DNA of 64,000 bases from Bdellovibrionales bacterium (GTDB lineage: Bacteria; Bdellovibrionota; Bdellovibrionia; Bdellovibrionales; JAGQZY01): NCBI GenBank assembly GCA_031426555.1, contig JANPLN010000030.1:1-64000 (forward strand). The letters are read 5' to 3'. Shown piece by piece: positions 23,794 to 48,712 of this stretch; position 1 is the first letter of the stretch, and each line of letters starts with the position of its first letter. The position numbers and the translations under genes were made by a program. Below the pieces are notes generated by a model. The model was not told the origin of the DNA, did no database searches, and saw only the letters and a program-made list of their open reading frames with translations.

Positions 23794-23833
23794 CCTCTCT
23801 TTTTAAGACGCGTCCATCCCTGGACTCGCTTGC
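23794..23833 (+). repeat. Half-copy of the palindromic element at 48569-48705
   Basis: CCTCTCTTTTTAAGACGCGTCCATCCCTGGACTCGCTTGC aligns with CCTCCCTTTTAAGACGCGCCCATCCATGGACTCAGTTGC (48601-48639). Confidence 0.75.
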
Positions 23834-23892
23834 AAATCGACGATGTATACTAGGCAATTGATACAAATATGTATTTTATTATGAGGAAAGAA

Positions 23893-24156
23893 ATGGTGCT
23901 TGAGGCGTATTTTCAGAAATTAATTGACCGGGTGGAACTAGAGATTTCCAATCAGGGGAAAGATGAGAATGGATTTTTTAAGCCGACTAAAACGATTCTG
24001 GTGCGGCATTTAAGCACTCTCAAAGACTTGCACAGCAAGCCTTTGGCAAAAGATATCGTCAAAGCCTCGTGGCAGTACGTGAACGAAAATCTCCCGCCCG
24101 AGTGGTTGGTGCTCACACCCACCGAAAAAGCTGAGCTTAAAAAAATCCTGGCTTAG
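23893..24156 (+). CDS. Small helical hypothetical protein
   Basis: AGGA RBS, 87-aa ORF filling the gap; no recognised motif. Confidence 0.65.
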   Translation: MVLEAYFQKLIDRVELEISNQGKDENGFFKPTKTILVRHLSTLKDLHSKPLAKDIVKASWQYVNENLPPEWLVLTPTEKAELKKILA

Positions 24157-24158
24157 AA

Positions 24159-24206
24159 GGTACGGCAAGGGGCAAGGCGCCTTCGGCGCTTAGCTCGCTC
24201 CGTACC
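24159..24206. repeat. REP-like mini-palindrome between convergent genes
   Basis: GGTACGG...CCGTACC outer arms; inner GGCGCC-TTC-GGCGCT hairpin (GAA loop on the minus strand). Confidence 0.55.
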
Positions 24207-24207
24207 G

Positions 24208-25233
24208 TTAATTCATCTGCTGGGGAATGCGGCCGGCCATGATTTCGGCAAATGGCTGCGTGGCTTCGATGCGCATAAAGACGATTTTTAACACCGCGGT
24301 GATGGGCACCGCTAAAAACATTCCCGACAGTCCCCAAATTAACGCCCAAAACACCAAGCAGATGAGTACGGTGATGGGATGCAAATCCATAATTTCGCCA
24401 AGCACTCGCGGCTCAACGATATTGCCGATGATAAACTGCATGATTCCCAGCACCGTAAAAATCACAAAAAACTGCCAGCCAAAACCGTAGGAATAAAACA
24501 CCACCGGAAATGGAAGAGCCACAGCAATGATGGGGCCCACCGTGGGAATAAAGTTAAGCAGAATCGCCGACAAGGTAAAAATCAAAGCGAGGTCGACCTG
24601 AAAGGAACCAAGCATAATCAAAAACACGACTCCTGCCGCAAGCGCCAAGAATAGTTTTTTTATAGTGTACTCAAAAGTTTTGATCATAATGGTGCGAATC
24701 AACGGTGATTTGATCTGCGCATTTTGATCGCCCACGATCATAAAAGCTGTGTAAATCAACACCAGCGTAAGATTACCGATGATGTAGAACGTTTGCTGGG
24801 TAAAATCGCGCACGTACGACACCGGGTTGAATTCCTTGGCCTGCGCGAGAATAAATTCTTTATCGATTTGAATTCCCGCCGGTAGTTGTTCTTCGATAGA
24901 GGTTAAAATATTAGCGAGATAGTATTCGTAGCCTGTGATTCCAGTGATGAGTTGTTTCAGCGCCGGAAACATTATCACGATCACACTGACGATAACTCCC
25001 ATGACTCCGGCAATGGCCACACTGATGGCAAGAGTGCGGGGCAGCCTTAAATGAACTTGAATCCAATAAATGATAGGCGCAAAAATCGCATAGGTAAAAA
25101 TCGCAAACACAAACGGAACAAGAACCGGTTTTGTGTAAGTGAGCACGGAGGCCACAGCAATAATGGTGAGGATGACGAGACAGATCTGAATGGTTTTTGT
25201 GGCAGTAGTGATCGAAGTGGCAGATTTTAACAA
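24208..25233 (-). CDS. AI-2E family transporter
   Basis: LNFIPTVGP, GNIVEPRVLG, LHP, WGLSGMFLAVP. Confidence 0.9.
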   Translation of the reverse strand: MLKSATSITTATKTIQICLVILTIIAVASVLTYTKPVLVPFVFAIFTYAIFAPIIYWIQVHLRLPRTLAISVAIAGVMGVIVSVIVIMFPALKQLITGITGYEYYLANILTSIEEQLPAGIQIDKEFILAQAKEFNPVSYVRDFTQQTFYIIGNLTLVLIYTAFMIVGDQNAQIKSPLIRTIMIKTFEYTIKKLFLALAAGVVFLIMLGSFQVDLALIFTLSAILLNFIPTVGPIIAVALPFPVVFYSYGFGWQFFVIFTVLGIMQFIIGNIVEPRVLGEIMDLHPITVLICLVFWALIWGLSGMFLAVPITAVLKIVFMRIEATQPFAEIMAGRIPQQMN

Positions 25234-25297
25234 GGTAGGTCTCCTAGCAAGGGCTCCGTACCTAGATCATCAGAGATCTAAAAGTTAAAATCAATAT

Positions 25298-25741
25298 TTA
25301 TTGAAAAAGACCGTCGAAGAGTTGTCCAGGCTGAGTTGGAGTGATCGTCGGAGTTATTACAGAGATCTGCGATCCAAAGCTCACTGGAGTGGCTTCTGCG
25401 CTAGGTTCAAAATTTGGTTGGTTTTGTTTAACGAAGCCTGCAAATTCAACATTGTTGTCAAAGAAGCGAATTTGTCCTTCGAACTCTTCTACAAACTGAT
25501 TGATCATTTTTGGAGTGGCTTTTCGCGAGAAAATTTTGAGGTCTTCGTAGCAACCAGAAACATTGCCCGCTTGCGGTGTTGGAGCCCAGTAAGGAAGGTT
25601 GTCTTTGTTGAGAACTGCAATCATCACGTTTTCGCAGGCTTCGAACGTCGGGATTTCATGATCCATCTCATGACCTTGGATATGGTGGGCATGGGCGGTG
25701 GTGGCGAAACTTACAAACAAGAGAGTAAAAAGCGTTTTCAT
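25298..25741 (-). CDS. Secreted hypothetical protein with a His-rich mature N-terminus
   Basis: Signal peptide ending TAHA, then HHIQGHEMDHE; GAGG RBS. Confidence 0.7.
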   Translation of the reverse strand: MKTLFTLLFVSFATTAHAHHIQGHEMDHEIPTFEACENVMIAVLNKDNLPYWAPTPQAGNVSGCYEDLKIFSRKATPKMINQFVEEFEGQIRFFDNNVEFAGFVKQNQPNFEPSAEATPVSFGSQISVITPTITPTQPGQLFDGLFQ

Positions 25742-25916
25742 GTGTACCTCGTAATATGGAACAATTGATACAGAGGTTCGCGAAGAATGAAAAATTATTC
25801 GTTGGAATCATCATTCATCAGTTTTTCTTCTGCGATAATAAATTACTCAGTATGAAAGATTTTCACTAAGTAAAGGGTGATGGTGACCTTGGAATTGTGA
25901 AAAACAGGAGTACACT

Positions 25917-26174
25917 ATGCCTATGAGTAAAAATTTATGGTTTAAAAAGAAAACGTACGGGTGGGGATGGACACCCTGCAATTGGCAGGGCTTCGTTGTC
26001 GTTGGTTTGTACGTAGCCGCTTTATGTTTAACAGTCTGGTTTGTAAGAATAGGCATTTTCGAATGGACTCCAACGCAGCTCACCATAGCTATTTTCGCAG
26101 AGTTCGCTGTTTTGGTCGCTATTTCCTACGCCAAAGGCGAAAAGCCTTCCTGGAGCTGGGGCCGATCAAAATAG
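25917..26174 (+). CDS. Small two-TM membrane protein with Trp/Gly-rich termini
   Basis: WFKKKTYGWGWTPCNWQG, two hydrophobic helices, C-terminal GEKPSWSWG; AGGAG RBS. Confidence 0.75.
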   Translation: MPMSKNLWFKKKTYGWGWTPCNWQGFVVVGLYVAALCLTVWFVRIGIFEWTPTQLTIAIFAEFAVLVAISYAKGEKPSWSWGRSK

Positions 26175-26218
26175 CTTTGGGAACCAAATCACTGCCGCTA
26201 CGGCATTAGGAGCTTCAT

Positions 26219-26353
26219 CAAGTTTCAATGGTTTCTTAAAAAAGGATGGATTAAAAAGGTTTTTAAAAACGAGTTCCGCAGCGAAGCGAGGACTGTCCGA
26301 GATTTTTAAAGACCTTTTTAATCCATCCTTTTTTAAGAAACCATTGAAACTTG
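26219..26353. repeat. Giant palindromic element A
   Basis: 51-bp arms (26219-26269 / 26303-26353) with 1 mismatch; 33-bp core containing GCGAAGC; 3 bp from the ychF stop. Confidence 0.9.
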
Positions 26354-26356
26354 CGA

Positions 26357-27457
26357 CTAAACATTAAACCTGAAGAAAAGAACGTCGCCGTCTTTGACGA
26401 TATATTCTTTGCCTTCGAGGCGGTATTTGCCTGCGTCTTTCACGGCTTGTTCGCTTTTGAGGGTGAACAGGTCGGCGCAGTTGTAGGTTTCGGCGCGGAT
26501 GAAGCCTTTTTCAAAGTCAGTGTGGATGACACCTGCCGCTTGTGGAGCCTTTGTGCCCTTGCGAATGGTCCATGCGCGCACTTCTTTTTCGCCAGCGGTG
26601 AAGTAGGTTTGCAGACCTAACAGCGCATAAGCTTCGCGGATGAGGCGGTTCAGGCCGGGCTCGGTGACGCCGAGGCTTTCTAAAAACTCTTTGCGCTCTT
26701 CGACAGGCAGCTGAGCGATTTCGGCCTCCATAGAGCTACAAATGAGAATGGCCAAATTGTTTTCTTTTTTTGCAAATTCAATCACGGACTTCGACCAGTC
26801 GTTTCCGCCCTTGGTGAAATCACTTTCGCTCACGTTGCAAACGTACAACGTGGGTTTTGATGTGAGCAGATGCATCCCTTTTACGACGGGTTCGGTTTGC
26901 TCGTCGGTTTCCACAATGCGGGCCGGTTTTCCAGCTTCGAGAGCCTGTTGGACTTTTATAATGATATCAAGCTCGGCGATCTGTTTTGGATCCTTGCTGG
27001 ATTTTGCGGTTTTTTCGATGCGCTGACGGCGTTTTTCCACAGAATCAAGATCGGCGAGCATGAGTTCGGTGTTGATCACTTCGATGTCGCGAATGGGATC
27101 CACGGAGCCCGACACGTGGATCACATCGGGGTCGTCGAAGCAGCGTACAACCTGCACGATGGCGTCGGTTTGACGAATGTTTGCGAGGAACTGGTTACCC
27201 AAGCCTTCGCCTTTACTCGCGCCCTTAACGATCCCTGCGATGTCGACAAACTCGATGGTGGTGGGGATTACGCTCTGGGGTTTGATAAAGGTACATATTT
27301 GATCCAAGCGCACATCAGCCACAGTCACCACGCCCACGTTGGGGTCAATGGTGCAAAAGGGGTAGTTGGCTGCTTCGGCTTTGGCCGAAGTGAGCGCGTT
27401 GAAAAGCGTGCTTTTTCCGACGTTTGGTAATCCAACAATTCCGCACTGAAGACTCAT
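26357..27457 (-). CDS. ychF: Ribosome-binding ATPase YchF
   Basis: [48 protein letters not shown]. Confidence 0.98.
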
Positions 27458-28056
27458 GGCGTGTCCTTTGGTTTTAGAGAATTAAAATAATTCGCTGTTT
27501 TGTCGTACCCTTGAAAGATTAAAGATTCAACAGCGTCGAGAGCCGTGTTTAGAAAATCTGGGAGTTGCGCGCTTTCGTCTTTGCTAAAATTGCTCAGGAC
27601 GTGATCAGCCACATCGATATTGGGATTGGTGGGGCGGCCGACGCCAAGTTTGATTCGAAAATATTTGTTGTGACCTAATTTTTCGTGGATGTCCCGAATA
27701 CCGTTATGGCCACCGTGGCCTCGGTCCTTTTGAATTTTAAGCTGAGCAAATGAAAAATCGATTTCGTCGTGCAAAACAATTATCTGACTGTGCTCGATTT
27801 TATAAAAGTCGCAAAGACTGCGCACGGGATCGCCCGAAAGGTTCATAAACTCTTGCGGTTTGCAGAAGACAACTTTCTGCGACTGTTTATTGTCCTCGGA
27901 ATGCAGAGTGAGGTGAGTGGTGAGGGCTTTTAGTTCTTTTTTTTCGGGGGGCGCGTTGACGGACTTCAGAAACGTATCCACAGCCATAAAGCCGATATTG
28001 TGGCGATTGAGAGCATATTTAGAGCCAGGATTGCCAAGACCGACGATAAGCCACAT
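27454..28056 (-). CDS. pth: Peptidyl-tRNA hydrolase
   Basis: LIVGLGNPG, RHNIGF, FMNLSG, GHGGHNG. Confidence 0.97.
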   Translation of the reverse strand: MWLIVGLGNPGSKYALNRHNIGFMAVDTFLKSVNAPPEKKELKALTTHLTLHSEDNKQSQKVVFCKPQEFMNLSGDPVRSLCDFYKIEHSQIIVLHDEIDFSFAQLKIQKDRGHGGHNGIRDIHEKLGHNKYFRIKLGVGRPTNPNIDVADHVLSNFSKDESAQLPDFLNTALDAVESLIFQGYDKTANYFNSLKPKDTP

Positions 28057-28073
28057 GTTTTCTATCCATAACG

Positions 28074-28097
28074 AAAAAAGCCCGGGTGAGCGGGCTT
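28074..28097 (-). terminator. Intrinsic terminator after rplY
   Basis: AAGCCCG/CGGGCTT stem followed by a U-tract on the minus strand. Confidence 0.7.
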
Positions 28098-28144
28098 ATG
28101 TTCAGTGAGCAAAGTCTTTTCAAATAAATGAAAAGACAAACTAA

Positions 28145-28825
28145 TTACTTCTTTTTTGCTGGTGCAGCAGCGGCAGCGGCCGGAGCAGCTGCGCCAGCGG
28201 CAGGAGCTGCGCCTGCAGCAGGAGCTGCAGCAGCCACAGTTTCAACAGCAGCTGCTTTCTCTTCGACGTAAGCAGTTACTGTTGCAAGTGTGCGTTCGCC
28301 AGGTGTTACAGCGCGAACGCCATCTGGAAGTTTAAGATCGGACACGTGGAGAGAGTTGTTCAAACGAATTTCTGTAATATCCACTTTTAAAGTTGCAGGA
28401 ATTGCTGAAGGCAAGCACTCGATTTCCATATCATGCATAATAACCTGGAAAATCCCGCCCTCTTCTTTTACGCCAGCAGCAACGCCAACGTATTCGAGAA
28501 CCACTTTTACGCGCACTTTGCGAGTCATATCGAGAGCGTAGAGATCAAGGTGCACGGGGCGGTCAGAAACCGGGTGCATCTGAATGTTTTTAATAAGAAC
28601 TTTTACGTCATTCAATGCACTCTCTTTGCTTTTCAAAGAGAAAATCGCTGATTCAAAGCGTGCGCTCAAATATTTTTTAATTACGTTCTCTTCAACGAAA
28701 ATCGTTTGATTTTTAAATTTTGGACCGTAAATCACAGTCGGAACTTTGTTTGATTTACGAGCGGAGCGAGAAAAGTGTTTTCCCACTGTGCGAGGTTCTG
28801 CATTTAAAACTAATTCTGTACTCAT
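28145..28825 (-). CDS. rplY: 50S ribosomal protein L25/Ctc
   Basis: VPTVIYG, QMHPV...HLDL, GVKEEGG, Ala/Pro-rich tail; prs-rplY-pth-ychF synteny. Confidence 0.95.
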   Translation of the reverse strand: MSTELVLNAEPRTVGKHFSRSARKSNKVPTVIYGPKFKNQTIFVEENVIKKYLSARFESAIFSLKSKESALNDVKVLIKNIQMHPVSDRPVHLDLYALDMTRKVRVKVVLEYVGVAAGVKEEGGIFQVIMHDMEIECLPSAIPATLKVDITEIRLNNSLHVSDLKLPDGVRAVTPGERTLATVTAYVEEKAAAVETVAAAAPAAGAAPAAGAAAPAAAAAAPAKKK

Positions 28826-28853
28826 AGGTCCACCTTTTTATATTTAAAATTCA

Positions 28854-29798
28854 TCAATCAAAAAGAGAACTGACGGAGGCATTTCCATAAATTCTCTGAA
28901 TCGCTTCTGCAACTACCGGAGCCATTGACGTGACGACAACTTTTCCGCACGCACGACTTGTTTCGCTCGAAGGAATTGTGTCGGTCACAATCACTTTTTC
29001 GAGACCAGATTCCGTAATTCTTTGAATCGCGGGACCGGAAAACAAAGCATGGGTCGCAACAGCGAACACCCTTTTTGCACCATTGTTAAGCAGGCTGTCA
29101 ACACCTTGTGTGAGGGTGCCTGCCGTGTCGATCATGTCGTCCAGAATAATGGCCTCCTTGTCGCGAACGTCACCTATTAAGTGAAGTGCTTTCGCAACGT
29201 TAGGACCCGAGCGGCGCTTATCAATAATGGCCATGGAGCAATCGATTCTTTTGGCGAAAGCGCGGGCTCTTTCAACCCCACCGGCATCGGGGCTCACAAC
29301 CACATAGTCTTTGCCCATTCCGTAATTATCTTTCCAGTATTGGGCGAGGGTAGGAATGGCAAACAGGTGATCCACTGGGCAGTTAAAGAATCCCTGAATT
29401 TGAGCCGCGTGGAGATCCACACAAAGGACGCGCGAGGCTCCAGCGGTGGTAAGCAGGTCGGCCATGCATTTTGCCGTGATTGGGGCCCGCGGAGCCACTT
29501 TGCGATCCTGGCGTGCGTAGCCGTAATAGGGAATCACAGCGACGATATTCTTTGCCGAAGCGCGCTTTAGCGCATCCAGTGTTACAAAAAGTTCCATGTA
29601 GTTTTCGTTCACAGGAGGGCAGGTGCTCTGAATCAGGTAAACACTGGCGCCGCGAACACTCTCTTGAATTTCAACCTGGATCTCGCCATCGGCGAACCGT
29701 GAGATGGTGGACTGACCCAAACGCATGCCCGCGTGTTCGGCAACTTTTTCGGCGAAGGCTTTGTTGGAATTGCAGGTAAAAATTCGCAGGTCGTTCAT
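28854..29798 (-). CDS. prs: Ribose-phosphate pyrophosphokinase
   Basis: PYYGYARQDRK, DLHAAQIQGFF, VVSPDAGG, DDMIDTAGT. Confidence 0.98.
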   Translation of the reverse strand: MNDLRIFTCNSNKAFAEKVAEHAGMRLGQSTISRFADGEIQVEIQESVRGASVYLIQSTCPPVNENYMELFVTLDALKRASAKNIVAVIPYYGYARQDRKVAPRAPITAKCMADLLTTAGASRVLCVDLHAAQIQGFFNCPVDHLFAIPTLAQYWKDNYGMGKDYVVVSPDAGGVERARAFAKRIDCSMAIIDKRRSGPNVAKALHLIGDVRDKEAIILDDMIDTAGTLTQGVDSLLNNGAKRVFAVATHALFSGPAIQRITESGLEKVIVTDTIPSSETSRACGKVVVTSMAPVVAEAIQRIYGNASVSSLFD

Positions 29799-29922
29799 GG
29801 GTGGAAAGGAGTTAACACTGCGAGGCGATATTGTCCAGATTTAGAGGATAAAATCAGAGAGAATTTGGCAAATCGCCTCATTCTGCCAGTCTTTTTTGCA
29901 GAGGCGATCGTAAATCGAGCTT

Positions 29923-30516
29923 TTAGAGACTTTTTAAAAACTCAGTGATTTTTTTGCAGGCTTGCGCTCGGTGTGAAAGTGCGTTTTTAACGGCGTCAGT
30001 GAGTTCGCCAAAAGTTTGCGTGTGGCCTTCGGGAATAAAGGCGGGATCGTAACCGAAGCCCTTTGTTCCTGTGGCTTTTGTTGAGATTTGCCCGTGGCAT
30101 TGGCCGGTAAAAACCTGCTCTGCCCGTTGCGGACTGATCAAAACCAAAGAGCATTCAAAGTAAGCTTTGCGATTCGACGACGAGCGAATCTGCATCATCT
30201 TTAAAAGTTTTGCGACATTTTCGGCATCGCTGGCTTTTTCCCCTGCGTAGCGCGCCGAGTGAACACCGGGCAAACCACCAAGTCCATCCACGCACAAACC
30301 GGAATCGTCGGCCAAAACCCAATCCGCGTCATCGACTACGCTTTTTAATGAGCGGGCTTTGATTTGCGCATTTTCTAAAAATGTTTTTCCAGTTTCGGGA
30401 GGTGAAGAGTAAACAGGGAGTTCATTTTGTGAATGAACAGTAAACGCGGGATTGGCCAGCATCATTTTAAACTCAGCCAATTTTCCTTTGTTGCCTGTGG
30501 CAATCCATAACTTCAT
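29923..30516 (-). CDS. rdgB: Non-canonical purine NTP pyrophosphatase (RdgB/HAM1)
   Basis: ATGNKGK, ADDSGL, PGVHSARY, GFGYDP, SHRAQA. Confidence 0.96.
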   Translation of the reverse strand: MKLWIATGNKGKLAEFKMMLANPAFTVHSQNELPVYSSPPETGKTFLENAQIKARSLKSVVDDADWVLADDSGLCVDGLGGLPGVHSARYAGEKASDAENVAKLLKMMQIRSSSNRKAYFECSLVLISPQRAEQVFTGQCHGQISTKATGTKGFGYDPAFIPEGHTQTFGELTDAVKNALSHRAQACKKITEFLKSL

Positions 30517-30521
30517 GGGCG

Positions 30522-31262
30522 TCAAAATGGGCTCATCAGATTTGTATAATTAAAAACTTCGAGAACTCTTTTTTGCTCTTCAAATAACTGTGCACAGCCT
30601 TTTTGCGCGAGGTCGATCATCGCTTGCAATTGCGCTTGGGTGAATGGTTTTTCCTCGGCCGTGCCTTGAATTTCGACAAAATCACCATTCGAGTTCATCA
30701 CAAAGTTGGCGTCGGTATCGGCGGTGGAATCCTCTTGGTAACAAAGGTCTAACGTGGGTTCGTTGGCAATCATGCCCACGCTGATGGCGCTGACAAAACT
30801 GCGAATGGGCGCCTGCATATTCGGCTCTTTTTTCTTCATGTAACTCAACGCCTGCACAAGAGCTACAAAACCACCGGTAATGGCGGCCGTGCGAGTGCCG
30901 CCGTCGGCTTGCAAAACATCACAGTCGATATTGATTTGTTTTTCTCCGAGTTTGTAAAGATCCACGGAGCTTCGCAAGCTTCGGGCAACGAGACGAGAGA
31001 TTTCTTGAGTGCGTCCGCTGGAGGCTGCTTTTTCGCGGTTCATGCGCTCGTGGGTGGAGCGCGGAAGCATTCCGTATTCGGCCGTCACCCAACCTTTCCC
31101 TTGGTTTTGCAGCCATTTGGGTACGGTGGGCTCAAGACTGGCGGTGCAGAGAACATGGGTGTGGCCGATTTTGATAAGGGCGCTGCCCTCGGCATAACGG
31201 TTCACTCCCACTTCGATGGAAAGTGGACGAAGATCTGAAAGTTTTCTTTGGTCGATGCGCAT
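30522..31262 (-). CDS. rph: Ribonuclease PH
   Basis: GWVTAEYGMLPRST, GRTQEISRL, DCDVLQADGGTRTAAITG; start at ATG 31262. Confidence 0.97.
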   Translation of the reverse strand: MRIDQRKLSDLRPLSIEVGVNRYAEGSALIKIGHTHVLCTASLEPTVPKWLQNQGKGWVTAEYGMLPRSTHERMNREKAASSGRTQEISRLVARSLRSSVDLYKLGEKQINIDCDVLQADGGTRTAAITGGFVALVQALSYMKKKEPNMQAPIRSFVSAISVGMIANEPTLDLCYQEDSTADTDANFVMNSNGDFVEIQGTAEEKPFTQAQLQAMIDLAQKGCAQLFEEQKRVLEVFNYTNLMSPF

Positions 31263-31267
31263 GGGGG

Positions 31268-33566: not shown

Positions 33567-33749
33567 ATGCCCAACTTTACAGCACTTTAAGTTTCTGAAT
33601 TCTTCCAAAAACTCAAATTGTAAGGAAAAAGACCTCTCGCCAACAGGATGTTGGATCTGCGAGTTGAGCCCACGACGGGCGCGTCTTTTTTCTTACAATT
33701 TGAGTTTTTGTAAGAATTCAGAAACTTAAAGTGCTGTAAAATTAGGCAT
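33567..33749. repeat. Giant palindromic element B, overlapping the gspN 3' end
   Basis: 67-bp arms (33567-33633 / 33683-33749) with 4 mismatches; 49-bp structured core; the right arm includes 24 nt of the gspN CDS. Confidence 0.92.
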
Positions 33750-34715: not shown

Positions 34716-34716
34716 C

Positions 34717-40454: not shown

Positions 40455-40470
40455 GAGACCTCAAGGTGAA

Positions 40471-40902: not shown

Positions 40903-40945
40903 AATTTCTCCTCATTTATTTACAATGACTTAACAAGTTTTCGCT

Positions 40946-42163
40946 CTACTGTACAGTATTCAGCATGTCCATCATAGGAACAAGAACTGAGATAACGATA
41001 AATCCAATGACACCCCCCATTAGGACCGTCATGATTGGATTTAGTACAGAGGTGAGACCGTCTACTTTATTTTTCACCTGAAAATCATAGGTTTCAGCCA
41101 CTTGATTAAGCATTCTTTCCAGTTCGCCAGTTTTTTCGCCGATGGCCACCATGTGAATAACAATCGGCGGAAACTGTTCCGATTTTTTTAATGGGCCGGC
41201 GATGGATTCACCCTCGCGAATATTGTCGCGAGCATCATCAATCGCTCTTGCCAGTACTGCATTATCCACCACATTGCGCACAATATCCATGGCATTGAGC
41301 ATGGGAACTCCGCCAGACAGTAAAGTAGAAAGAGTGCGTGTGAAGCGCGAAACCGCGATCATGCGCGCAAGTTTTCCGACGATGGGGAGATTTAAAAGGA
41401 TTCTATCCCAAATGGGGCGACCCGTGGCGGATCTTTTCCAAACCATAAAAAACGAAAAGCCGCCCACCATGCTGATGATGATTAAATACCAATAGCTCAC
41501 CATAAAATCACTCATGTCGATCACAGCCTGCGTATACCAAGGAATTTCCACGCCTTGATCAATAAGAATTGTTGTGATCGTGGGAAGAATGTAAACAAAC
41601 ATTCCCATCAAAATACCTATCATCGCAATAATCGTGATCACCGGTTGCATCATGGCCGATTGAACCTTAGAGCGAAGCTCGGATCGTGCCTCGGTGAATT
41701 CCGCAAGGCGAAGGAGAATCACGTCGAGAGAGCCCGACATCTCGCCGGCGCCCACCATAGAGACAAACACATTATCAAACGCCTTGGGATATTTGAGCAT
41801 GGCTTTTTGCAGCGTACTTCCCTCGTTCACTTGGTTGCGGCAGTCGGCCAGCACTTCCTTCAGGTAAGGATTTTCGGATTGATCAGAAACCGCGCTTAAA
41901 CAATCCACCAAGGGAATGTTGGCTTTGACCAGCGACGACAGCTGGCGAGTCATGTTGGAAATCTCGTCCACACTCACTCGGCCTGAGGTGACGCCCGAGG
42001 AGGCTTTCTTTTTTTGCTGAGCCTTCATTTTGTCGGCCAGGGTCATCACATAAACGCCGTCTTTTTTTAATTTTAAGCGGGCGTTGCGCTGGTTATCGGC
42101 ATCGATGATACCTTTAACTTTAGTGCCAGCGCGGTTGACGCCCTTGTACTCGTAGACAGGCAT
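40946..42163 (-). CDS. gspF: Type II secretion inner-membrane platform F
   Basis: GEMSGSLD, RFTRTLSTLLSGGVP, GEKTGELE. Confidence 0.95.
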   Translation of the reverse strand: MPVYEYKGVNRAGTKVKGIIDADNQRNARLKLKKDGVYVMTLADKMKAQQKKKASSGVTSGRVSVDEISNMTRQLSSLVKANIPLVDCLSAVSDQSENPYLKEVLADCRNQVNEGSTLQKAMLKYPKAFDNVFVSMVGAGEMSGSLDVILLRLAEFTEARSELRSKVQSAMMQPVITIIAMIGILMGMFVYILPTITTILIDQGVEIPWYTQAVIDMSDFMVSYWYLIIISMVGGFSFFMVWKRSATGRPIWDRILLNLPIVGKLARMIAVSRFTRTLSTLLSGGVPMLNAMDIVRNVVDNAVLARAIDDARDNIREGESIAGPLKKSEQFPPIVIHMVAIGEKTGELERMLNQVAETYDFQVKNKVDGLTSVLNPIMTVLMGGVIGFIVISVLVPMMDMLNTVQ

Positions 42164-42181
42164 AAATAAACCTCAAAGTTT

Positions 42182-43873
42182 TTACAAATCCGTTTGCGTA
42201 TTTGAGAGAACTTCCTCAATCGTTGTAATCCCATTGAGAACTTTTTCGATTCCATGATCGCGGAAGGTTCGCATTCCCTGTTCCACGGCCATTTTTTTAA
42301 TGGCACCAGAATCTTTTCTCTGCATCACCAGTGTACGGATCTCTTCGCTGACGATCAAGAGTTCTTGAATCAAAGTTCGGCCCAGATAGCCCTTGTAGTT
42401 GCACTTGTCGCAACCCACAGCTTTGTGGATGCGGGCGCGTTTGGCAGTTTCAAGTGGCATATCTAAATTGGCGGCATCGGCCTCACTTGGAACATGGGGC
42501 TGTTTGCAGTGGGGGCAGAGTACACGTACGAGGCGCTGCGAGATCACGCCCAAAAGGGAGGTGGCAATCAAAAAAGGCTCGCAGCCAATGTCGGTCATGC
42601 GCGGGAAGGCTCCGGCCGCATCGTTAGTGTGAATCGTGGAGAGCACTAAGTGACCTGTGAGCGAGGAGTTGATGGCAATTTCCGCGGTTTCTAAATCGCG
42701 AATCTCCCCAATCATAATAATGTCTGGATCTTGTCGGAGAATGGCCCGCAGACCGCTTCCGAAAGTGAGGCCAATTTTAGAATTCACCTGAATCTGACCA
42801 ATGCCGGGAATTCGCTGCTCCACAGGGTCTTCCACCGTGATAATGTTGGATTCGATGGAGTTGAGTTTTTGCAAACACGCATACAGCGTAGTTGATTTAC
42901 CACTTCCGGTGGGGCCGGTGACAAGAATAATTCCATAGGTGCGCTGAATAAGTTCTTCGATCCGGCGCAGGTTGGCTTCGGCAAAGCCCAGTTGTTCGAG
43001 GGATAAAATCACATTGGAGCGATCTTGCAAACGCATCACCAGGCGTTCGCCAAAAGACGTAGGCACGGCGTTCAATCGGACGTCGATGTCTTTACCACCA
43101 ATGCGTAACGGAATGCGACCATCCTGCGGCAATCGTTTTTCGGCGATGTTGAGGTTGCCCATCACTTTGATTCGCGAAGTGATGGCGTTTTGTAATTTTT
43201 TAGGTGGTTTATAGATGTCGTACAAAAGACCATCAATGCGAAAGCGAACGACCATTTCTTTTTCGTAAGGCTCGATGTGAATATCAGACGCTTTTTCTTT
43301 CACCGCGCGCGATAATAACGTGTTTACGAGTTTAATCACCGGCGCTTCATCGTCGGATTCTAAAAGATCGACGATAGAATCATCAAGGTCATCGCCGCCA
43401 TCTTCGATTTCTTCCAGGCCATCGAGAGCCGCCGTGCCTTTCTCGTACAAGCGATTGATCGCATCGAGCAAGCGCGTTTTTGTTGTCACTAGAGGAATCA
43501 CTTCTTTTTTAAACAACGTGCGAATGTCATCAAAGGCAATAAAATTGAGGGGATTCGTAGTGTACACAAAAACCGAGTTTTTGTCTTCCTTGGCAGGGAG
43601 AATTTCTTTGTTCTTGGCGTAATTGATCGGGATGTTGCGAATCATATCCATGGGGATATCGTTAAATGGAATATCCTTTACAAATTGAAAGCCGAGTTTT
43701 TTACAAAAGTGCGCAAGGATCTCTTCACCCGTGGTCTCTTTGGTGAGCGAAAGATAAGCCTCTAAATTCACTGCGCCATCCACCGGAGAGTCGAGGAGAG
43801 CGCGAATCTGCTGTTCGCTCAGCGAAGTGACTTTTCCTAAAATACTTTCGTAATTAACATCGGTGACGGCCAT
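42182..43873 (-). CDS. gspE: Type II secretion ATPase E
   Basis: ASDIHIEP, Walker A GPTGSGKS, LRQDPD, TGHLVLSTIH, CPHC...CDKC. Confidence 0.97.
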   Translation of the reverse strand: MAVTDVNYESILGKVTSLSEQQIRALLDSPVDGAVNLEAYLSLTKETTGEEILAHFCKKLGFQFVKDIPFNDIPMDMIRNIPINYAKNKEILPAKEDKNSVFVYTTNPLNFIAFDDIRTLFKKEVIPLVTTKTRLLDAINRLYEKGTAALDGLEEIEDGGDDLDDSIVDLLESDDEAPVIKLVNTLLSRAVKEKASDIHIEPYEKEMVVRFRIDGLLYDIYKPPKKLQNAITSRIKVMGNLNIAEKRLPQDGRIPLRIGGKDIDVRLNAVPTSFGERLVMRLQDRSNVILSLEQLGFAEANLRRIEELIQRTYGIILVTGPTGSGKSTTLYACLQKLNSIESNIITVEDPVEQRIPGIGQIQVNSKIGLTFGSGLRAILRQDPDIIMIGEIRDLETAEIAINSSLTGHLVLSTIHTNDAAGAFPRMTDIGCEPFLIATSLLGVISQRLVRVLCPHCKQPHVPSEADAANLDMPLETAKRARIHKAVGCDKCNYKGYLGRTLIQELLIVSEEIRTLVMQRKDSGAIKKMAVEQGMRTFRDHGIEKVLNGITTIEEVLSNTQTDL

Positions 43874-46371
43874 TAGTTTTCGCTCTCATCTTCCAGAGGC
43901 AGAGCCCCTTCCAGTTCGTCGATAGAAATATCTTCATCTTGGCGGGGCGCTGGCGACTCCGCTGGTGGGAGATCTTGGTCTTCCAATTTAAATTCGTCAA
44001 CGGCGTTGGCAAATTTGCCGACCGGTTCCAGATTTTCACCAAAGGGATCACGGCCGTTGAGATTGCGCTTCACCCAGTTGATACGCTCATCGTATTTGTT
44101 CTTGGTCAGTTTGCGATGATCTTCTGAGTTGCGAATAATTCGCGGCGATAAAAAGACCATGAGGTTGGTTTTAAAACGACTGGCTTTTCGGCCCTTAAAT
44201 AACCAACCTAGCACGGGAATGTCGCCAAGAAAAGGGACCTTCTTTTCATCGAGCCTATCAGTGTCTTGAATTAAACCTCCGAGAACGGCGACATCGCCGC
44301 TTTTGAGGGTGAGATTGGTTTTTAAAGTTCTCTTTTTAATTCCCTGGGTTGCATCTCTTAACTGCTGCGCCGATGGAATTTTTGTACTTACATCAAATGC
44401 CTTTTGCTCGATGTTCAATGTGACTATATCGGAGTCAGGGCTAATAAAGGGTTTAATCTTTAGTAGAATTGTTGCGTCTGCGAACTGCACTTGCTGCTGG
44501 GCCACGCCAGCGGCGGTGGGAGCTGCGTTGATCGCCAACGGAATTTGATCCCCCACTTCAATGTAAGATTCTTCATTGTCCATGGCCATAATCTGCGGTG
44601 TCGAAAGTACGTTGGTATTGAGGTTGGTTTTTAAAAACTGAATAAAACCCAAAAGGTTCGGGATGGTTGCCACCGTACCGCCGATGTTTACGGATACTTT
44701 GTCTCCGCTTCCAAAACCGAGAATTCCACCAGAAGCGCCAATATCCTGAAGGCTGCTAATCTCACCTGTAATATATCCCGCGCGTGCCACCGAGTTCGCA
44801 CCGGCATTGGCCGTGTTGGTATCGGATTCGCTAAACTTTAAGACGTTCATGCTCCACGTGTCGGACTTTTGCGCATCCATTTCTACGATATACGCTTCGA
44901 CATAGACTTGATCTTTTGGAATGTCGATTTTCTCAAGCAATGAGGTCACCGTGCTGTAATCCTGCTTGTTGGCCGTGATGATCAAGCTGTTGGTGTTTTC
45001 GTCAGCCTTGATAATCACATCGCCGCCAAAAAGATTTTGTTTGGCTTTGGGAGCTTGGAACGTGGCAGGGTTGTTGGCATCGGATGCTGGCGTCGACGTG
45101 GAGGCTTTCTTTTCCTGCTCCTGGGCAATGCCATTGAGTGTATCAGCAATTTTTTTCGCTTCACCGTGTTTGACGTAATAAACATAAATACCACCGGCAT
45201 CGGCTGGATCCAGCGGATAATCGAGTTGCTTCACCAGTTTCAGAATTCGCTCAATACCTTCGCTGTTGCCAACAACGATGATGGAATTGGTGCGTTCGTC
45301 GGGAGTCACCAAGGAAAGTGACTCGTTCTTTTCCTGAGCTCCAAAGCGCGAAGCGGGACGAAACGTGTTTTTCTTTTTGTCTTCGCCTTTGTTAATAATC
45401 TTATCAACGAGCTCGGCAACGTCTTTCGCCTTGGCGTGTTTAATGGGAATCAATTGCAAACGCTCTTCAAAGCCAGGCTTGTCCAGCTCTTCGAGAACCT
45501 GAGTGATTTTACTCACGTTGGATCCAAGATCAGTAACAATCAACGAGTTGGTTTTTTCGTAAGGAATCACTTGGCCGGCTTTGGATTTAATAATCTTCTC
45601 AAAAGTCTTCGATGCGTCGTCTGCGCTTAAAAATTTCAAACGAATGATCTTGGTGATCAACTGATCGCCGTCTGGATAGTAGGCGCCGCTGTAAATATCA
45701 AGGGCTCCGGTTTTGGCTTCGTCGAGTTTTTGAATTTTCAAAAACTTTCCCGACGGCACCACAGTGAGTCCGTTCATCGATAGCGATGACAAAAATGTCT
45801 GCCATGCTTCGGCCACGGTGATGGGGCCTGGAGAAATAATGGTGATTTTTCCGTTGAGATTCTGTTCAAAGATAAAACGTTTTCCAGTGAGGCGAGCAAT
45901 GGCATTCACCACATCGGCAATCGGAGCATCTTTGTAATCGAAGCTCGCGACGGTGTCGGGAAAGTTTTCGTTGTGGATGTCTTCGGGCTGAGCATCCATA
46001 AATGGCATTTTGCCTTTGACTCCTGTCGTGGGAATGTTTGTTGGTGCCACAGGCGCACCAGCAGAATTGGTGTTGTTGGAAAAGTCGCCGGAATTTGCGG
46101 CCTTGTTGTTAAACCTTGAAGGGGCGGTGTTGCCGCCATTAAAACGGCCACCAGAGCGGAATCGCGAGGGACCAGGGCCCGGAGGGGGAGGCGTGTTATT
46201 AAAATTATTATCTCCTTCAAACCCTTCATCTCCTGGCGGAGGCGGGGCGGGAATTTCCTCGGCTTCTTCGAGAAGTTCGGTATCGTCTTCGAACTCTCCC
46301 TGTGCTTGAATCTTTTGCACGGACAGGGTCGTGAAGAACAAAACAAAAACGACCAAAAACTTCTGTATCAT
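43873..46371 (-). CDS. gspD: Type II secretion secretin D
   Basis: N-domain repeats DERTNSII and DENTNSLI; KVPFLGDIPVLGWLF, LMVFLSPRII; start ATG 46371 behind GAGG with a signal peptide. Confidence 0.95.
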   Translation of the reverse strand: MIQKFLVVFVLFFTTLSVQKIQAQGEFEDDTELLEEAEEIPAPPPPGDEGFEGDNNFNNTPPPPGPGPSRFRSGGRFNGGNTAPSRFNNKAANSGDFSNNTNSAGAPVAPTNIPTTGVKGKMPFMDAQPEDIHNENFPDTVASFDYKDAPIADVVNAIARLTGKRFIFEQNLNGKITIISPGPITVAEAWQTFLSSLSMNGLTVVPSGKFLKIQKLDEAKTGALDIYSGAYYPDGDQLITKIIRLKFLSADDASKTFEKIIKSKAGQVIPYEKTNSLIVTDLGSNVSKITQVLEELDKPGFEERLQLIPIKHAKAKDVAELVDKIINKGEDKKKNTFRPASRFGAQEKNESLSLVTPDERTNSIIVVGNSEGIERILKLVKQLDYPLDPADAGGIYVYYVKHGEAKKIADTLNGIAQEQEKKASTSTPASDANNPATFQAPKAKQNLFGGDVIIKADENTNSLIITANKQDYSTVTSLLEKIDIPKDQVYVEAYIVEMDAQKSDTWSMNVLKFSESDTNTANAGANSVARAGYITGEISSLQDIGASGGILGFGSGDKVSVNIGGTVATIPNLLGFIQFLKTNLNTNVLSTPQIMAMDNEESYIEVGDQIPLAINAAPTAAGVAQQQVQFADATILLKIKPFISPDSDIVTLNIEQKAFDVSTKIPSAQQLRDATQGIKKRTLKTNLTLKSGDVAVLGGLIQDTDRLDEKKVPFLGDIPVLGWLFKGRKASRFKTNLMVFLSPRIIRNSEDHRKLTKNKYDERINWVKRNLNGRDPFGENLEPVGKFANAVDEFKLEDQDLPPAESPAPRQDEDISIDELEGALPLEDESEN

Positions 46372-46396
46372 GAAGGTACCTCTCTGTTGGACTCTC

Positions 46397-46555
46397 GGGT
46401 GTATCCTCAATTTGGCAAGTCCATAGAACGAATGATTTCGAGCTGACTCTTCGTTACTTCTCCTCACGTTAGCGTTTCACTACCGTTTCGTCGTCGCGCC
46501 TCGATTCAGCTCGAAATCATTCGTTCTATGGACTTGCCAAATTAAGGATACACCC
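46397..46555. repeat. Giant palindromic element C, in the gspD leader
   Basis: 50-bp arms (46397-46446 / 46506-46555) with 1 mismatch; 59-bp core. Confidence 0.92.
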
Positions 46556-46620
46556 TATTAAACCTTAAAAAAATAGAGAGCTTAAGCACGAACTCACCGA
46601 ATGACCTTTAGCGGGGCCTA

Positions 46621-46693
46621 GGTCGAGTCCAATAAGACTCGACCCCAAAAAGACGCGAGTCCAATAGGACTCGACCCCAAAAAGACGCGAGTC
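46621..46693. repeat. 32-bp tandem repeat (about 2.2 copies), each unit a hairpin
   Basis: CGAGTCCAATA[A/G]GACTCGACCCCAAAAAGACG at 46624-46655 and 46656-46687, plus CGAGTC. Confidence 0.88.
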
Positions 46694-46794
46694 AAAAAAA
46701 CTAACACAGCAATTCAGTGCGAATTTTCTCGCACAAGGTCGAGATGACAAAAGGGGAGGTCCTCTTTTGCTAAACATTTGTTACTCTGTTCCTT

Positions 46795-47703
46795 ATGAGA
46801 ATTCCTTTGCTGTCCGCATTGATCGAAAAAATACGCGCTAACGAACGCCCCCCTTTCGAAAAATTCTATATTCTCGTGTTTATCGTATTTGTAGGCTTTC
46901 TCGTCGGCGATCTGGTCACTCTTTACGTGCGGCAGTATCTGTTGCCAACAACCGTGCCTCCCAAAAAAATAACCAGCATGCAAAACCGCGCCGCCCGCTC
47001 CTACAACTATCCCGACATCATCACTTACAATATTTTTAATTCGGATCACAAGATACCTCCGTCACTGGCCCAGCTGGAGGGCGGAATGACTCCCGACGGT
47101 GCGCCTCGCCTGAGTCAGTTGCCGCTGGATTTGATCGGCACCATTGTTCATGCCAACTCCAAGCGCTCTCTTGCCACCATCGTTCAACGGGGGCAAAACC
47201 TCGTAGAACCCTATTCGGTGGGTCAGACCATTGCTGGTCTGGCCGAAGTGAAAGAGATTTTGCGCGAGAAAGTGATTTTTCGAAATCTGCAGACTCAGGG
47301 TCTCGAATACATCGAAATCCCCCACGAAGATAAAATTTTGTTATCCACCGAAAAGGGCCCCACCGTGGCCGCTCCGCAAACCCAGGACAAGACAGAGTTC
47401 AAATTAAAGCGCGAGGAGATCAATGGAGCCCTCGAGCGTTTGCCAGAACTCCTTCAACAAGCTCGTGTCGTTCCTGAAATGGGGCCCGATGGCCAGGTGA
47501 AGGGCTATTGCATGGTCGAAATGCAGCCTGGCAGTTTGTACGAAAAATTAGGTCTGCGCATCGGCGATTGCATTCGCACGGTGAATGGCGAGCCAATCAA
47601 TAGTCCGCAAAAAGGGATGCAGATGTTTCAGGAGTTGCGCAACGCTCCTCGAGTGGAAATCGGCACTGATCGTGCGCAGTTGAAGTACGACATCGAAAAT
47701 TGA
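46795..47703 (+). CDS. gspC: Type II secretion protein C (TM, HR and PDZ domains)
   Basis: NIFN, LDLIGTI, GSLYEKLGL..GDCIRTVNGEPINSP; divergent from gspD. Confidence 0.9.
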   Translation: MRIPLLSALIEKIRANERPPFEKFYILVFIVFVGFLVGDLVTLYVRQYLLPTTVPPKKITSMQNRAARSYNYPDIITYNIFNSDHKIPPSLAQLEGGMTPDGAPRLSQLPLDLIGTIVHANSKRSLATIVQRGQNLVEPYSVGQTIAGLAEVKEILREKVIFRNLQTQGLEYIEIPHEDKILLSTEKGPTVAAPQTQDKTEFKLKREEINGALERLPELLQQARVVPEMGPDGQVKGYCMVEMQPGSLYEKLGLRIGDCIRTVNGEPINSPQKGMQMFQELRNAPRVEIGTDRAQLKYDIEN

Positions 47704-47872
47704 AGTACGAAATCGGATAAGGCTGCGGGATTTAGCAGCAATGCTGCACCCAAGTCTAAAAAGATTACCTAGCCGTTTGTAAATTATCGGGATTCCCAAT
47801 TGGAACCACCTCAGCTATCACTTCAGTCGGGGTTACGAGACAATTAGGGTTAGGGTTAGTTTACAGAGGGGA

Positions 47873-48562
47873 ATGGGGATGAGCACTGTATTAATGTTTA
47901 CAGGTCGCAGTGGGGTAGATCAGTTAGAGTTTCGTCAGCAGTTGTTGCGGGTTCCAGAAGTGTCGATCACTCTGAAAACGGCGCAAGCAATTCTCGAAGC
48001 CAGCCAGCACAAAGAAGCAAAAGAGCTTATGAGCTTGGCGCACTACGAAACAAACGAATATTTATCTGCCGGTCTTTGGCGAGATTTCTTAGCGCAATTG
48101 ATGCAAATCGGTCTTTATCGTCGTTACGAAAAATTATCAGCCCGACCACAATATATAATCGGCGACTCTGGCGAATGCTCAGCTTCAGCTGTGTGTTTAG
48201 GAGCCATGACTCTCGAAGAGTACGTGGGGCGCTTTTTGGAGCAGCTCGAAAAACGAAACGCCGAAGAACAATCCAAGGAATTTTTAGTTGGTCACCGTTT
48301 AGAAAGTGCAAAAATTTACGAGCGCACGTTTGAAGGCTACGTCGTTAAATCCGAAGGCAAAGATCTCTGGAGTTTGTTTGATGATCTTCGCAAAGATCAT
48401 TTGATCGACCAGATAGTCACCCTGGGCACAGCACCAAGTAACAACTGGCACATCGAGCAGGATCTCGGCATGGTGGAATCGGTTGTGATGGATCCTTTGC
48501 TCAGCTGGATGCTACCTTACTTGCGTTCTAGCACTGTGCCGCTGAATGTGGCTTACGGATAG
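47873..48562 (+). CDS. Degenerate malonyl-CoA:ACP transacylase (FabD/PKS-AT)-like protein
   Basis: VLMFTG; QIGLYRRYEKLSARPQYIIGDSGECSASAVCLGAMTLEE resembles the AT block around GHSxGE; only 229 aa. Confidence 0.55.
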   Translation: MGMSTVLMFTGRSGVDQLEFRQQLLRVPEVSITLKTAQAILEASQHKEAKELMSLAHYETNEYLSAGLWRDFLAQLMQIGLYRRYEKLSARPQYIIGDSGECSASAVCLGAMTLEEYVGRFLEQLEKRNAEEQSKEFLVGHRLESAKIYERTFEGYVVKSEGKDLWSLFDDLRKDHLIDQIVTLGTAPSNNWHIEQDLGMVESVVMDPLLSWMLPYLRSSTVPLNVAYG

Positions 48563-48712
48563 ACTGCGATTTTTAACTTTTAGATACAATTTTTTTAGAA
48601 CCTCCCTTTTAAGACGCGCCCATCCATGGACTCAGTTGCCCCCGTCCGGGTCGCAAAGGTCTTAAAAGGGAGGTTCTAAAAAAATTGTATCTAAAAGTTA
48701 AAAATGACTGCG
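48562..48712. mobile_element. Giant palindromic element D, MITE-like, with a 7-bp flanking direct repeat
   Basis: Perfect 47-bp arms (48569-48615 / 48659-48705), 43-bp core, GACTGCG directly on both sides (48562-48568, 48706-48712). Confidence 0.8.

Follow-up and report, generated by a model that had tools for sequence, protein, structure and literature searches.

Four long hairpins in the window

The 64,000-nucleotide stretch of Bdellovibrionales DNA analyzed here (the window) carries long inverted repeats whose arms pair almost perfectly within each copy and differ from copy to copy around related cores. This arrangement raises the question of whether the core or the ends constitute the mobile unit, and of how arms peculiar to one copy stay paired. 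The initial annotation read the pattern as the reverse of a classical MITE, in which the core is recognized and the arms are rewritten locally.

In element A (26219-26353, plus strand), 51-bp arms with one mismatch enclose an F2 core (26270-26302); the ychF stop codon is 4 nt away from the element. Element B (33567-33749, plus strand) has 67-bp arms with four mismatches enclosing a TwoAYGGAY-like F1 core (33634-33682), and its GGA strand is the plus strand, antisense to gspN. Element C (46397-46555, minus strand), an IS5-type MITE with a purine-rich structured core, has 50-bp arms with one mismatch (alternatively 53 bp at 96%). Element D (48569-48705, minus strand) has 47-bp arms without mismatch and an F1 core (48616-48658); its GGA strand is the minus strand, antisense to a gene whose stop codon is 7 nt away. 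D is flanked by a 7-bp direct repeat, which other copies lack. The annotation had placed all four against gene ends; A, B, and D do lie beside stop codons, whereas C adjoins no gene 3' end and occupies the divergent gspD/gspC gap, approximately 25 bp upstream of where relatives place the gspD start.

The four elements are real, as the annotation had proposed. Arms of at least 30 bp occur four times in the window (47-67 bp) and in none of 40 local shuffles, in which the longest arm was 17 bp. The source genome holds 46 such hairpin elements. Its observation that the start of the core recurs elsewhere was correct at 23805, which belongs to an F1 half copy (23759-23836, minus strand; 27 bits with the covariance model described below) comprising one arm and a GGA-loop hairpin, the other half being deleted; in the G001 orthologue both arms and the complete core are present, and the G004 site is empty. 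By contrast, the repeats at 46650 and 46682 are part of a tandem hairpin array with a 32-nt unit (46624-46703, plus strand) upstream of gspC, which is outside the hairpin family and has no covariance model match at E<=1. The array is shorter in G003, missing in G001, and replaced by a different array in G002.

The bracketing of the gspD-gspN operon by B and C, also remarked on earlier, proved incidental: G001 and G003 have neither element at these positions. At the site of B, G002 has a different element; the site of C is empty in G001, G002, G003, G005, and run X4. A mobile unit extending from B to C around the T2SS operon was considered and rejected because the operon is syntenic without either element.

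Near-perfect arms could also be fold-back assembly artefacts: all genomes used are short-read assemblies or MAG-like, and fold-back extensions do occur at G003 contig ends (L116, L117, and L303). Between separately assembled congeners, however, orthologous arms show dense differences, and in every genome they still pair with each other. Contigs of run X1, which is not independent evidence because it may be the source of the assembly, match B, C, and D without any difference and with unique flanks on both sides, and in X1 the read depth of the D arms is twice that of the D core. The artefact reading is largely refuted, and we regard it as extremely improbable.

The F1 core folds as a compact TwoAYGGAY-like module

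A covariance model was built from 26 F1 copies, B and D included. It scored 70.9 bits for B and 65.4 bits for D, both members of the training set, and confirms that the two share a core. In this model, 18 of the 26 pairs change on both sides, covariation is present in all four helices, and 98.6% of cells are paired, a value reached by 0 of 500 shuffles. The covariation indicates two sequential hairpins on a common basal stem, the layout of TwoAYGGAY (RF01731). B folds in this two-hairpin form both as DNA and as RNA, and the minimum-energy fold of D differs. Among 104 F1 copies, two GGA-loop hairpins were found in 45, one in 44, and none in 15, the anchors having been partly chosen on the second loop; B has one.

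The B/D core resembles TwoAYGGAY, whose long variable stem carries two loops of the GGA type. The two share a pair of hairpins, a long, poorly conserved outer stem, and many dispersed copies; AYGGAY-type sequence may be common to the loops of both, and the loop variants of the 2010 alignment (Weinberg 2010, PMC2864571; see also Gardner and Eldai, PMC4333381) match those of F1. Divergent doublets were found as well: all six close F1 pairs are divergent and 44-270 bp apart, and a recent preprint reports 68.4% divergent TwoAYGGAY doublets with a median spacing of 249 bp (bioRxiv 10.64898/2026.09.22.753630). Unlike TwoAYGGAY, F1 is compact (core of approximately 50 nt), its second hairpin lacks an outer stem of its own, and its outer stem traces to transposon shells and changes in mirror. 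No match in five genomes reached the RF01731 gathering threshold (43 bits), and the window had no sub-threshold match either; a relaxed cut-off gave 14 matches in four of the five genomes (23.3-40.3 bits), B and D not among them. No Rfam family matched the window at gathering thresholds. Relaxed matches to miRNA, tp2, isrG, and CrcZ models were rejected as generic long-hairpin or composition matches.

A probable TIRYT-type shell for A, B, and D

An inverted repeat that flanks a RAYT-type (TIRYT) gene in two congeners forms the ends of younger relatives of A, B, and D. The arm-end motif forms an inverted pair on both sides of a RAYT-like gene in G001 (contig C155), and in G003 (C79) it was found on one side, upstream of the RAYT-like gene, at a contig end. 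The same repeat accompanies a 51%-identical homologue in another family, and inverted copies of it flank the G036 homologue. Inverted repeats border homologues at 18 of 26 and at 18 of 19 of the loci inspected. The RAYT-like gene scored 73.5 bits against NF047646, just below the cut-off of 80. F1, F2, and F3 cores were each found inside the TIRYT-type repeat.

Other family members in G000-G003 carry the terminal repeat at both ends, whereas A, B, and D do not; because they retain none, their shell was assigned by family. The repeat is gone from A, and its F2 core occurs also in copies that retain it. The origin of A, B, and D from TIRYT repeat doublets, directly visible in relatives, is what we infer for these copies.

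In the source genome (G000), PF01797 had 12 matches, all outside the window, so the annotation was correct that the window holds no mobilizing gene of this kind, but RAYT-type and IS5 genes are tied to family ends in relatives. A cognate TIRYT was not found in G000, the best matches being 37% and 36% identical; its two sister genes go with different repeats, the start of one of them being apparently disrupted, and the orthologous site holds another repeat. In a 159-aa Y1 family, of which G000 has approximately 10 copies, the upstream region is conserved, and no palindrome was seen beside the genes. The TIRYT-type repeat had no match in G004 or G005, though F1 copies are present. Neither a clean empty site with a defined junction for a TIRYT-type copy nor a general target-site duplication for F1 or F2 was found.

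TIRtrons and TIR dimers (Di Nocera 2013, PMC3733652) are comparable: they too associate a RAYT-like HUH gene with long flanking inverted repeats that lack a GTAG tag and are also dispersed as dimers. The dimers here differ in enclosing an extra 30-45 bp of paired arm and exchangeable conserved cores, in persisting as old copies after loss of the repeat, and in a repeat that departs from the GGGGWSAS consensus; subclass 2.1 has been suggested for TIRYT transposases (bioRxiv 10.1101/279083). REPINs (Bertels and Rainey, PMC3116915, PMC3337134) are also hairpin doublets that are non-autonomous and associated with a RAYT-family gene, with spacers that differ between copies while pairing is kept and compensatory changes that are called common. 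In REPINs, however, the ends are conserved and the center varies, and copies number in the hundreds; here the center is conserved, the ends erode, and copies number in the tens. The window elements were rejected as REPINs: no window copy contains a REP, and full-length copies are conserved at the center.

A probable IS5-type shell for element C

At its end, C matches the repeat carried by an 867-bp IS5 element from G013 (NF033580, 176 bits against a cut-off of 110); PF01609 had no match in G000. C is flanked by TA on the right only, its left junction having changed by a few bases, and many C-core copies in G004 and G005 have TA on both sides. TA is the target-site duplication of this IS5 subgroup. 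Six young C-core copies in G005 have near-identical arms and are near-identical over their full length. Like IS5-family MITEs, C is approximately 160 bp long, with termini matching an autonomous IS5 and a burst of near-identical relatives. It differs in the left junction, which lacks a clean TA duplication, and in a single structured core that spans at least six kinds of arm end. Sequence resembling the C core is also present in other phyla. Of 53 matches to the C-core pattern beyond the two main records, 49 lack an arm of at least 14 bp, and many are chance matches.

These repeats do not support the claim that conservation is reversed relative to classical MITEs: full-length members end in terminal repeats that flank RAYT-type or IS5 genes, and the apparent reversal is mostly an effect of age. 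The arms fail to align among the four window elements, as noted earlier, whereas genome-wide the younger copies share arm ends. Two of the three observations that the initial annotation had named as speaking against its reading were therefore made in part, namely conventional MITE families (terminal repeats in full-length relatives, near-identical young C-core copies) and a described core family (a TwoAYGGAY look-alike of the same architecture, below the Rfam cut-off). The third, assembly artefact, was not, given the X1 contigs and the orthologous arms that pair within genomes.

Arms change in mirror and grow into gene ends

Arms were compared in 16 orthologous pairs, that is, 18 minus C2:85135 (no repeat in the interval searched) and the mis-paired C44:37119 (same G003 element as C44:37424); a survey of 0.8 Mb of G003 added few orthologous sites. 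Across 777 arm columns, 114 changes were mirrored and 23 were one-sided. Transversions accounted for 55 of the mirrored changes (48%), and one mirrored indel spans 21 columns. The cores were identical at 801 of 839 positions, with four core flips, and coding DNA near these sites differs at 11%. Some orthologous pairs may be replacements instead of descent. Conservation is higher in the cores than in the arms, and the cores are present in several unrelated shells. The orthologues of D show 10 (G001) and 8 (G003) mirrored differences and no one-sided difference; those of A in G001 and G003 show an internal deletion and one mirrored change.

The far arm was an inverted copy of the last codons of the host gene at all five sites tested. 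In B, the outer part of the right arm (33725-33749, minus strand) comprises the last codons and stop of gspN (MPNFTAL*). This gene end is conserved in G001, G002, and G003 and in part in G005, all of which lack B at the site. The outer part of the left arm (33567-33591, plus strand) is this gspN end inverted, with two synonymous differences, and is absent from the empty orthologues. Local arm rewriting is strongly supported by these comparisons, in agreement with that part of the initial reading; its view that conventional termini and a mobilizer are lacking is not supported. Polymerase template switching or gene conversion is the likely mechanism behind the copying pattern. Template-switch homogenization has been described in E. 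coli and relatives (Lavi 2018, PMC5941160), where imperfect arms are likewise corrected to perfect ones, visibly across orthologues; those arms are under 20 bp, whereas here they measure 35-78 bp, the core flips, and the arms grow into genes.

Gene-end copying could also mean that the core itself replicates, landing near gene ends or in hairpins and triggering fold-back synthesis of its own arms, with terminal repeats as mere landing neighbors. In favor of this reading, one C-type core has at least six kinds of arm end. F1 copies of other genera have paired stems of 21-55 bp without the TIRYT repeat, and congeners differ in what they carry at one and the same site, be it F1, F3, a different repeat, or no core. 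At the G003 site corresponding to the G000 copy on C31, the sequence reads as host DNA that matches just the outer arm. The host-derived stretch is nevertheless limited to the outer 8-33 bp, and young copies have whole arms in common, which local writing cannot produce; a coreless copy at an orthologous site (L092 versus L096) reads as a deletion from a full element, and neither a dedicated enzyme nor an armless fresh core was found. We consider core-driven replication unlikely and favor transposable shells with arm copying.

Orientation and possible function of the core

Among 68 informative F1 copies, the folding strand runs antisense to the stop codon that the copy abuts in 59 and sense in 9 (orthologous copies not being independent), and F2 showed 9 antisense to 3 sense. 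The bias was weak outside the genus (10 versus 4 among 48 copies), and IS5-borne C cores showed 8 antisense to 7 sense. TwoAYGGAY has been proposed in print, as a proposal only, to be an expressed RNA that binds CsrA/Rsm; the F1 core may be a candidate CsrA-binding RNA or a candidate ssDNA signal.

The elements could also be small-RNA genes or terminators whose stems are kept by compensatory selection without arm copying, F1 RNA acting as a CsrA sponge. GGA-loop hairpins occur on the folding (GGA) strand in 89 of 104 F1 copies and on the opposite strand in 13, one loop fits most of the CsrA SELEX consensus (PMC7652899), and csrA is present in 8 of 10 genomes searched. GGA-strand arm mismatches are more often G.T than A.C (47 versus 12 in the genus, 46 versus 17 in G145), but this bias is not significant at least 15 nt from the F1 core (18 versus 10) and is absent in other genera (6 versus 4). 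Against such selection stand the high share of transversions among mirrored changes, the 21-column indel, the antisense position of the GGA strand, and a first loop that is often ACGA or GTGA. At 102 copies, sigma-70-like promoter sites point toward the GGA strand in 6 cases and away from it in 6; sigma-54-like sites were 5 toward and 8 away, and sigma-28-like sites 0 toward and 1 away. The one promoter site that lies upstream of D does not exceed chance expectation. The folding strand is marked by C-GNA-G triloops, which are a DNA-type motif (27 of 95 copies versus 3 on the other strand; in F2, 14 of 15 versus 0). Stem maintenance by RNA selection instead of copying is improbable in our judgment, and RNA selection on the core can operate alongside the transposable-element origin.

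Proposed history of the family

These findings suggest that A-D are probably aged non-autonomous transposable elements with inverted-repeat shells and a conserved folded core, their arms rewritten in place by arm-to-arm copying. A, B, and D would derive from doublets of a TIRYT terminal repeat and C from an IS5-family repeat, mobilized by the corresponding enzymes. The positions of the copies are fixed, in most cases next to stop codons, and the terminal repeats are lost, as is apparent in the present copies. Template switching or gene conversion would place each new mutation on both arms, so that the arms become copy-specific yet remain paired; the same copying would extend the far arm into the inverted host gene end and sometimes flip the core. 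The core keeps its fold on one strand, as the compact TwoAYGGAY-like module of B and D illustrates, and may be cargo passed between shells. The most likely origin of the antisense orientation is that HUH insertion at stop codons is strand-specific; selection would then keep it.

A bolder and doubtful extension is that TwoAYGGAY-type cores are hitch-hiking replicators that move between unrelated HUH and DDE shells, promote fold-back rebuilding of their stems from adjacent DNA, host stop codons included, and lie antisense as ssDNA signals instead of mRNA elements. Each ingredient is already in print; in a search of mostly open-access literature, we found no paper joining TwoAYGGAY, TIRYT, and arm conversion. 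The TwoAYGGAY preprint calls the expansion 'mobile-element-like', and its text is silent on RAYT and MITE (bioRxiv 10.64898/2026.09.22.753630). The route that the present elements suggest for this copy-number spread is concrete: the transposon ends are named, and an HUH transposase is a candidate enzyme. The 59:9 antisense rule makes the choice between an RNA sponge and ssDNA directly testable. In bacterial repeats of 40-75 bp, the family also provides a probable natural example of copying between arms that can be measured, proceeds faster than nearby coding divergence, and duplicates gene ends.

Giant hairpins and their core families

The giant hairpins A (26219-26353), B (33567-33749), C (46397-46555) and D (48569-48705) are long inverted repeats whose positions, arm lengths and mismatches were all confirmed as first claimed. 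The window contains four arms of at least 30 bp, whereas 40 locally shuffled windows contained none (longest arm, 17). A scan of the whole 3.14-Mb genome (G000), in which the window lies at the start of contig C30, identified 62 inverted repeats with arms of at least 25 bp; 46 fell into four core families, namely F1 (32, including B and D), F2 (10, including A), F3 (3) and C (1), which bears out a real element family. Contigs of sequencing run X1, possibly the same source data as the assembly and hence perhaps not independent, matched B, C and D exactly, and the D arm was one 47-nt piece there, with twice the depth of the core and of each flank.

The reported recurrence of the core start stood at 23805, a half copy of the element, but not at 46650/46682, which belong to a separate tandem array. 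That array, a 32-nt hairpin repeated in variable number, occupies 46624-46703 in the gspD/gspC promoter gap, where the congener G002 carries an unrelated 31-nt array. Elsewhere in the window, the ORF at 2590-3162 contains three in-frame 120-nt repeats (2600-2959), and that at 28145-28825 a low-complexity Ala/Pro-type repeat (28163-28255).

Arms are probably rewritten in place

Arms were compared across 16 orthologous sites (18 pairs were given; C2:85135, with no repeat in the searched stretch, and the mis-paired C44:37119 were dropped). Across 777 columns, mirrored substitutions between species numbered 114 (15%) and one-sided differences 23; 55 of the 114 (48%) were transversions, compared with 36% in the T2SS operon, which diverged by 11%. 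The D arms carried 10 mirrored changes relative to congener G001, 8 relative to G003 and no one-sided change, and at one site an indel of 21 columns was present on both arms in mirror image. Cores at these sites were identical at 801 of 839 positions, and four were flipped; where termini are intact or cores flipped, some of the pairs may reflect replacement.

One arm of B consists, over its outer 25 bp, of the last gspN codons, which relatives that have no element here also conserve; those relatives lack the inverted copy of the gspN end found on the other arm. Four further G000 sites, picked for an arm that reaches into the end of an ORF, showed the same pattern, so that the far arm was an inverted host-end copy at all five tested sites (of about seven candidates). 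Transfer of sequence from the arm beside the gene onto the far one accounts for this pattern; paired selection on two independent mutations accounts for neither the mirrored indel nor the duplicated codons. The proposal that arms are rewritten locally was upheld. Template switching is the established candidate for such copying (PMC5941160). Sections of two REPIN papers (PMC3116915; PMC3337134) describe spacers that are likewise unique yet paired, with compensatory changes.

A probable TIRYT-type shell for F1, F2 and F3

The initial annotation held that the elements lack conventional termini and a candidate mobiliser; neither view survived. The longest F1, F2 and F3 arms end in a common motif, GGTACGGACACACTTTT, and full-length copies often start on a stop codon. 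There were 14 copies of the motif in G000, 20-30 in each of three congeners, nine in G009 and one in G014; of the 26 family genomes searched, the remaining 20, G004 and G005 among them, showed none. In G001, an inverted GGTACGGACACACTTTT pair encloses a 197-aa RAYT-like gene, the candidate mobiliser, whose product scored 73.5 bits on NF047646 (below the cut-off of 80). In G003, GGTACGGACACACTTTT lies upstream of a RAYT-like gene 88% identical to it and cut by the contig end. Related inverted repeats flank homologues at 18 of 26 metagenome loci examined (73 were returned) and at 18 of 19 relative loci, and a homologue 51% identical, in another family, has the same terminal repeat. These loci have the TIRtron layout described by Di Nocera 2013 (PMC3733652), in which inverted repeats surround a RAYT-like (TIRYT) gene.

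G000 has no GGTACGGACACACTTTT-associated RAYT-like gene, and two sister genes there have their own repeats. No terminal repeat is left on A, B or D, and we infer their origin in a TIRYT-type shell from family membership. What lies between the same termini varies among orthologous sites: F1, F3, another repeat or nothing.

Several side observations concern these shells. Two further TIRYT-type genes of G000 (C37:14796-15401, with an apparent frameshift near its start, and C44:15832-16473) have dispersed repeat families of their own (about 30 and 17 motif matches). Several copies (C37:7203-7268; C30:73292 onward, beyond the window; L033, L064, L092) carry, within their terminal repeat, a module of some 50 nt that has two small hairpins and that recurs in the repeat downstream of the C37 RAYT-like gene; it might lie near where an HUH enzyme would cut. 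A 7-bp direct repeat flanks D (48562-48568 and 48706-48712), also in G003; it was not seen at other F1 copies and may reflect chance or a different insertion route. A short palindromic repeat matched by eye to the CGTC type, as labelled in PMC3733652, is inserted beside a stop codon at L069/L024, to the left of the D orthologue in G001, and at L592 (G002).

About ten dispersed Y1/HUH genes of 157-160 aa, 70-80% alike by eye, also occur in G000 (C25:58362-58841, C25:12360-12839, C20, C66, C72 (two), C7, C9, C69, C30:90683 and C34; loci L001 and L004-L010). They share a conserved 250-nt upstream region with possible hairpins, no terminal repeats were seen at their loci, and the proteins score weakly on both IS200 and RAYT models; the family is possibly an ssDNA mobile element that has not been described before.

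A probable IS5-type shell for C

C ends in a sequence like the terminal repeat of a matching IS5 element, 867 bp long, in G013 (NF033580, 176 bits). Four congeners and sequencing run X4 have no insertion at the C site, and G005 holds six C-type copies with near-identical arms (eight candidate sites were fetched, two cut by contig ends). Young copies of both shells thus resemble ordinary non-autonomous elements.

Four congeners yielded 30 matches to the C core; of these, 26 had arms of at least 30 bp, with at least six kinds of arm end. It occurs with long arms in records titled Pseudobdellovibrionaceae or Bdellovibrionales; of 53 matches in other records, about 20, including Planctomycetota, showed the second half of the core by eye. 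In the loci searched, Rfam gave no match for F2 or C cores. Predicted to pair via tandem G.A steps, the purine-rich C core also lies in multi-copy repeats of distant phyla (L199, L201, L211 and similar in a Planctomycetota record; L194/L268) and may be an uncatalogued structured motif. C-core elements with three arm types lie in the gspD/gspC gap or up to about 250 bp from it in G000 (46397), G004 (L074) and G005 (L072), which suggests a hotspot or regulatory use.

The F1 core resembles TwoAYGGAY

An alignment of 26 F1 cores supported two hairpins on a basal stem, with 98.6% of cells paired and both sides changed in 18 of 26 pairs; none of 500 shuffles scored as high, a test inflated by the kinship of the cores. 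A G-C/G-U pair shows that the folding strand is the GGA one. No described look-alike had been expected, yet the start of the 2010 TwoAYGGAY seed alignment (PMC2864571) shares with F1 its loop variants and the inner module of its second hairpin, and shows a long outer stem rich in A/U. In later sources, this stem is described as not well conserved and CsrA binding is proposed (PMC4333381), and copy-number swings, REP association and divergent doublets are reported (bioRxiv 10.64898/2026.09.22.753630); close F1 pairs were divergent in six of six cases. F1 matched RF01731 only below threshold, and we file it as TwoAYGGAY-like, by score no member.

Of 61 relatives, 13 gave hits to the F1 covariance model, as did 4 of 121 phylum genomes; both counts include G000. 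In 20 copies from other genera the stems spanned 21-55 bp, and in G145 most spanned 20-47 bp; the TIRYT repeat was not seen at the copies viewed. Arm mismatches on the folding strand were G.T rather than A.C by 47 to 12 in F1, 15 to 2 in F2 and 12 to 1 in C; for F1 and F2 the excess was concentrated near the core (F1, 18 to 10 at 15 nt or more; F2, 2 to 2 at 10 nt or more). The ratio was 46 to 17 in G145, and the excess did not recur in other genera (6 to 4).

Orientation and role of the core

The F1 folding strand was antisense to the sole gene ending within 60 nt in 59 copies and sense in 9 (104 copies, 15 with a gene on both sides and 21 with none; genes called by a simple longest-ORF rule, and relatives share sites). 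The G000 subset was 25 to 0, and copies outside the genus only 10 to 4; F2 stood at 9 to 3, C at 8 to 7. Strand-specific HUH insertion at stop codons could produce this bias in F1 and F2 and would produce none in the DDE-borne C, which matches the counts. Core flips at old sites imply that selection must also help to hold the antisense orientation.

As RNA, the F1 core is a candidate CsrA-type ligand: GGA-loop hairpins occur on the folding strand in 89 of 104 copies versus 13 on the other strand, the loop resembles the CsrA SELEX consensus given in part of PMC7652899, and csrA is present in 8 of 10 genomes. The core is also a candidate DNA signal: the folding strand is antisense to the abutting gene, promoter-like sites show no excess, and the first loop frequently lacks GGA. 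C-GNA-G triloops, whose stability is DNA-specific, occur on this strand.

Taken together, A-D are probably old shells of the TIRYT and IS5 types that carry a structured cargo and whose arms are continually copied onto each other. We consider an element driven by its core and writing its own arms unlikely. What the window newly provides is a quantification of mirror evolution, named shells for both classes and an antisense rule.
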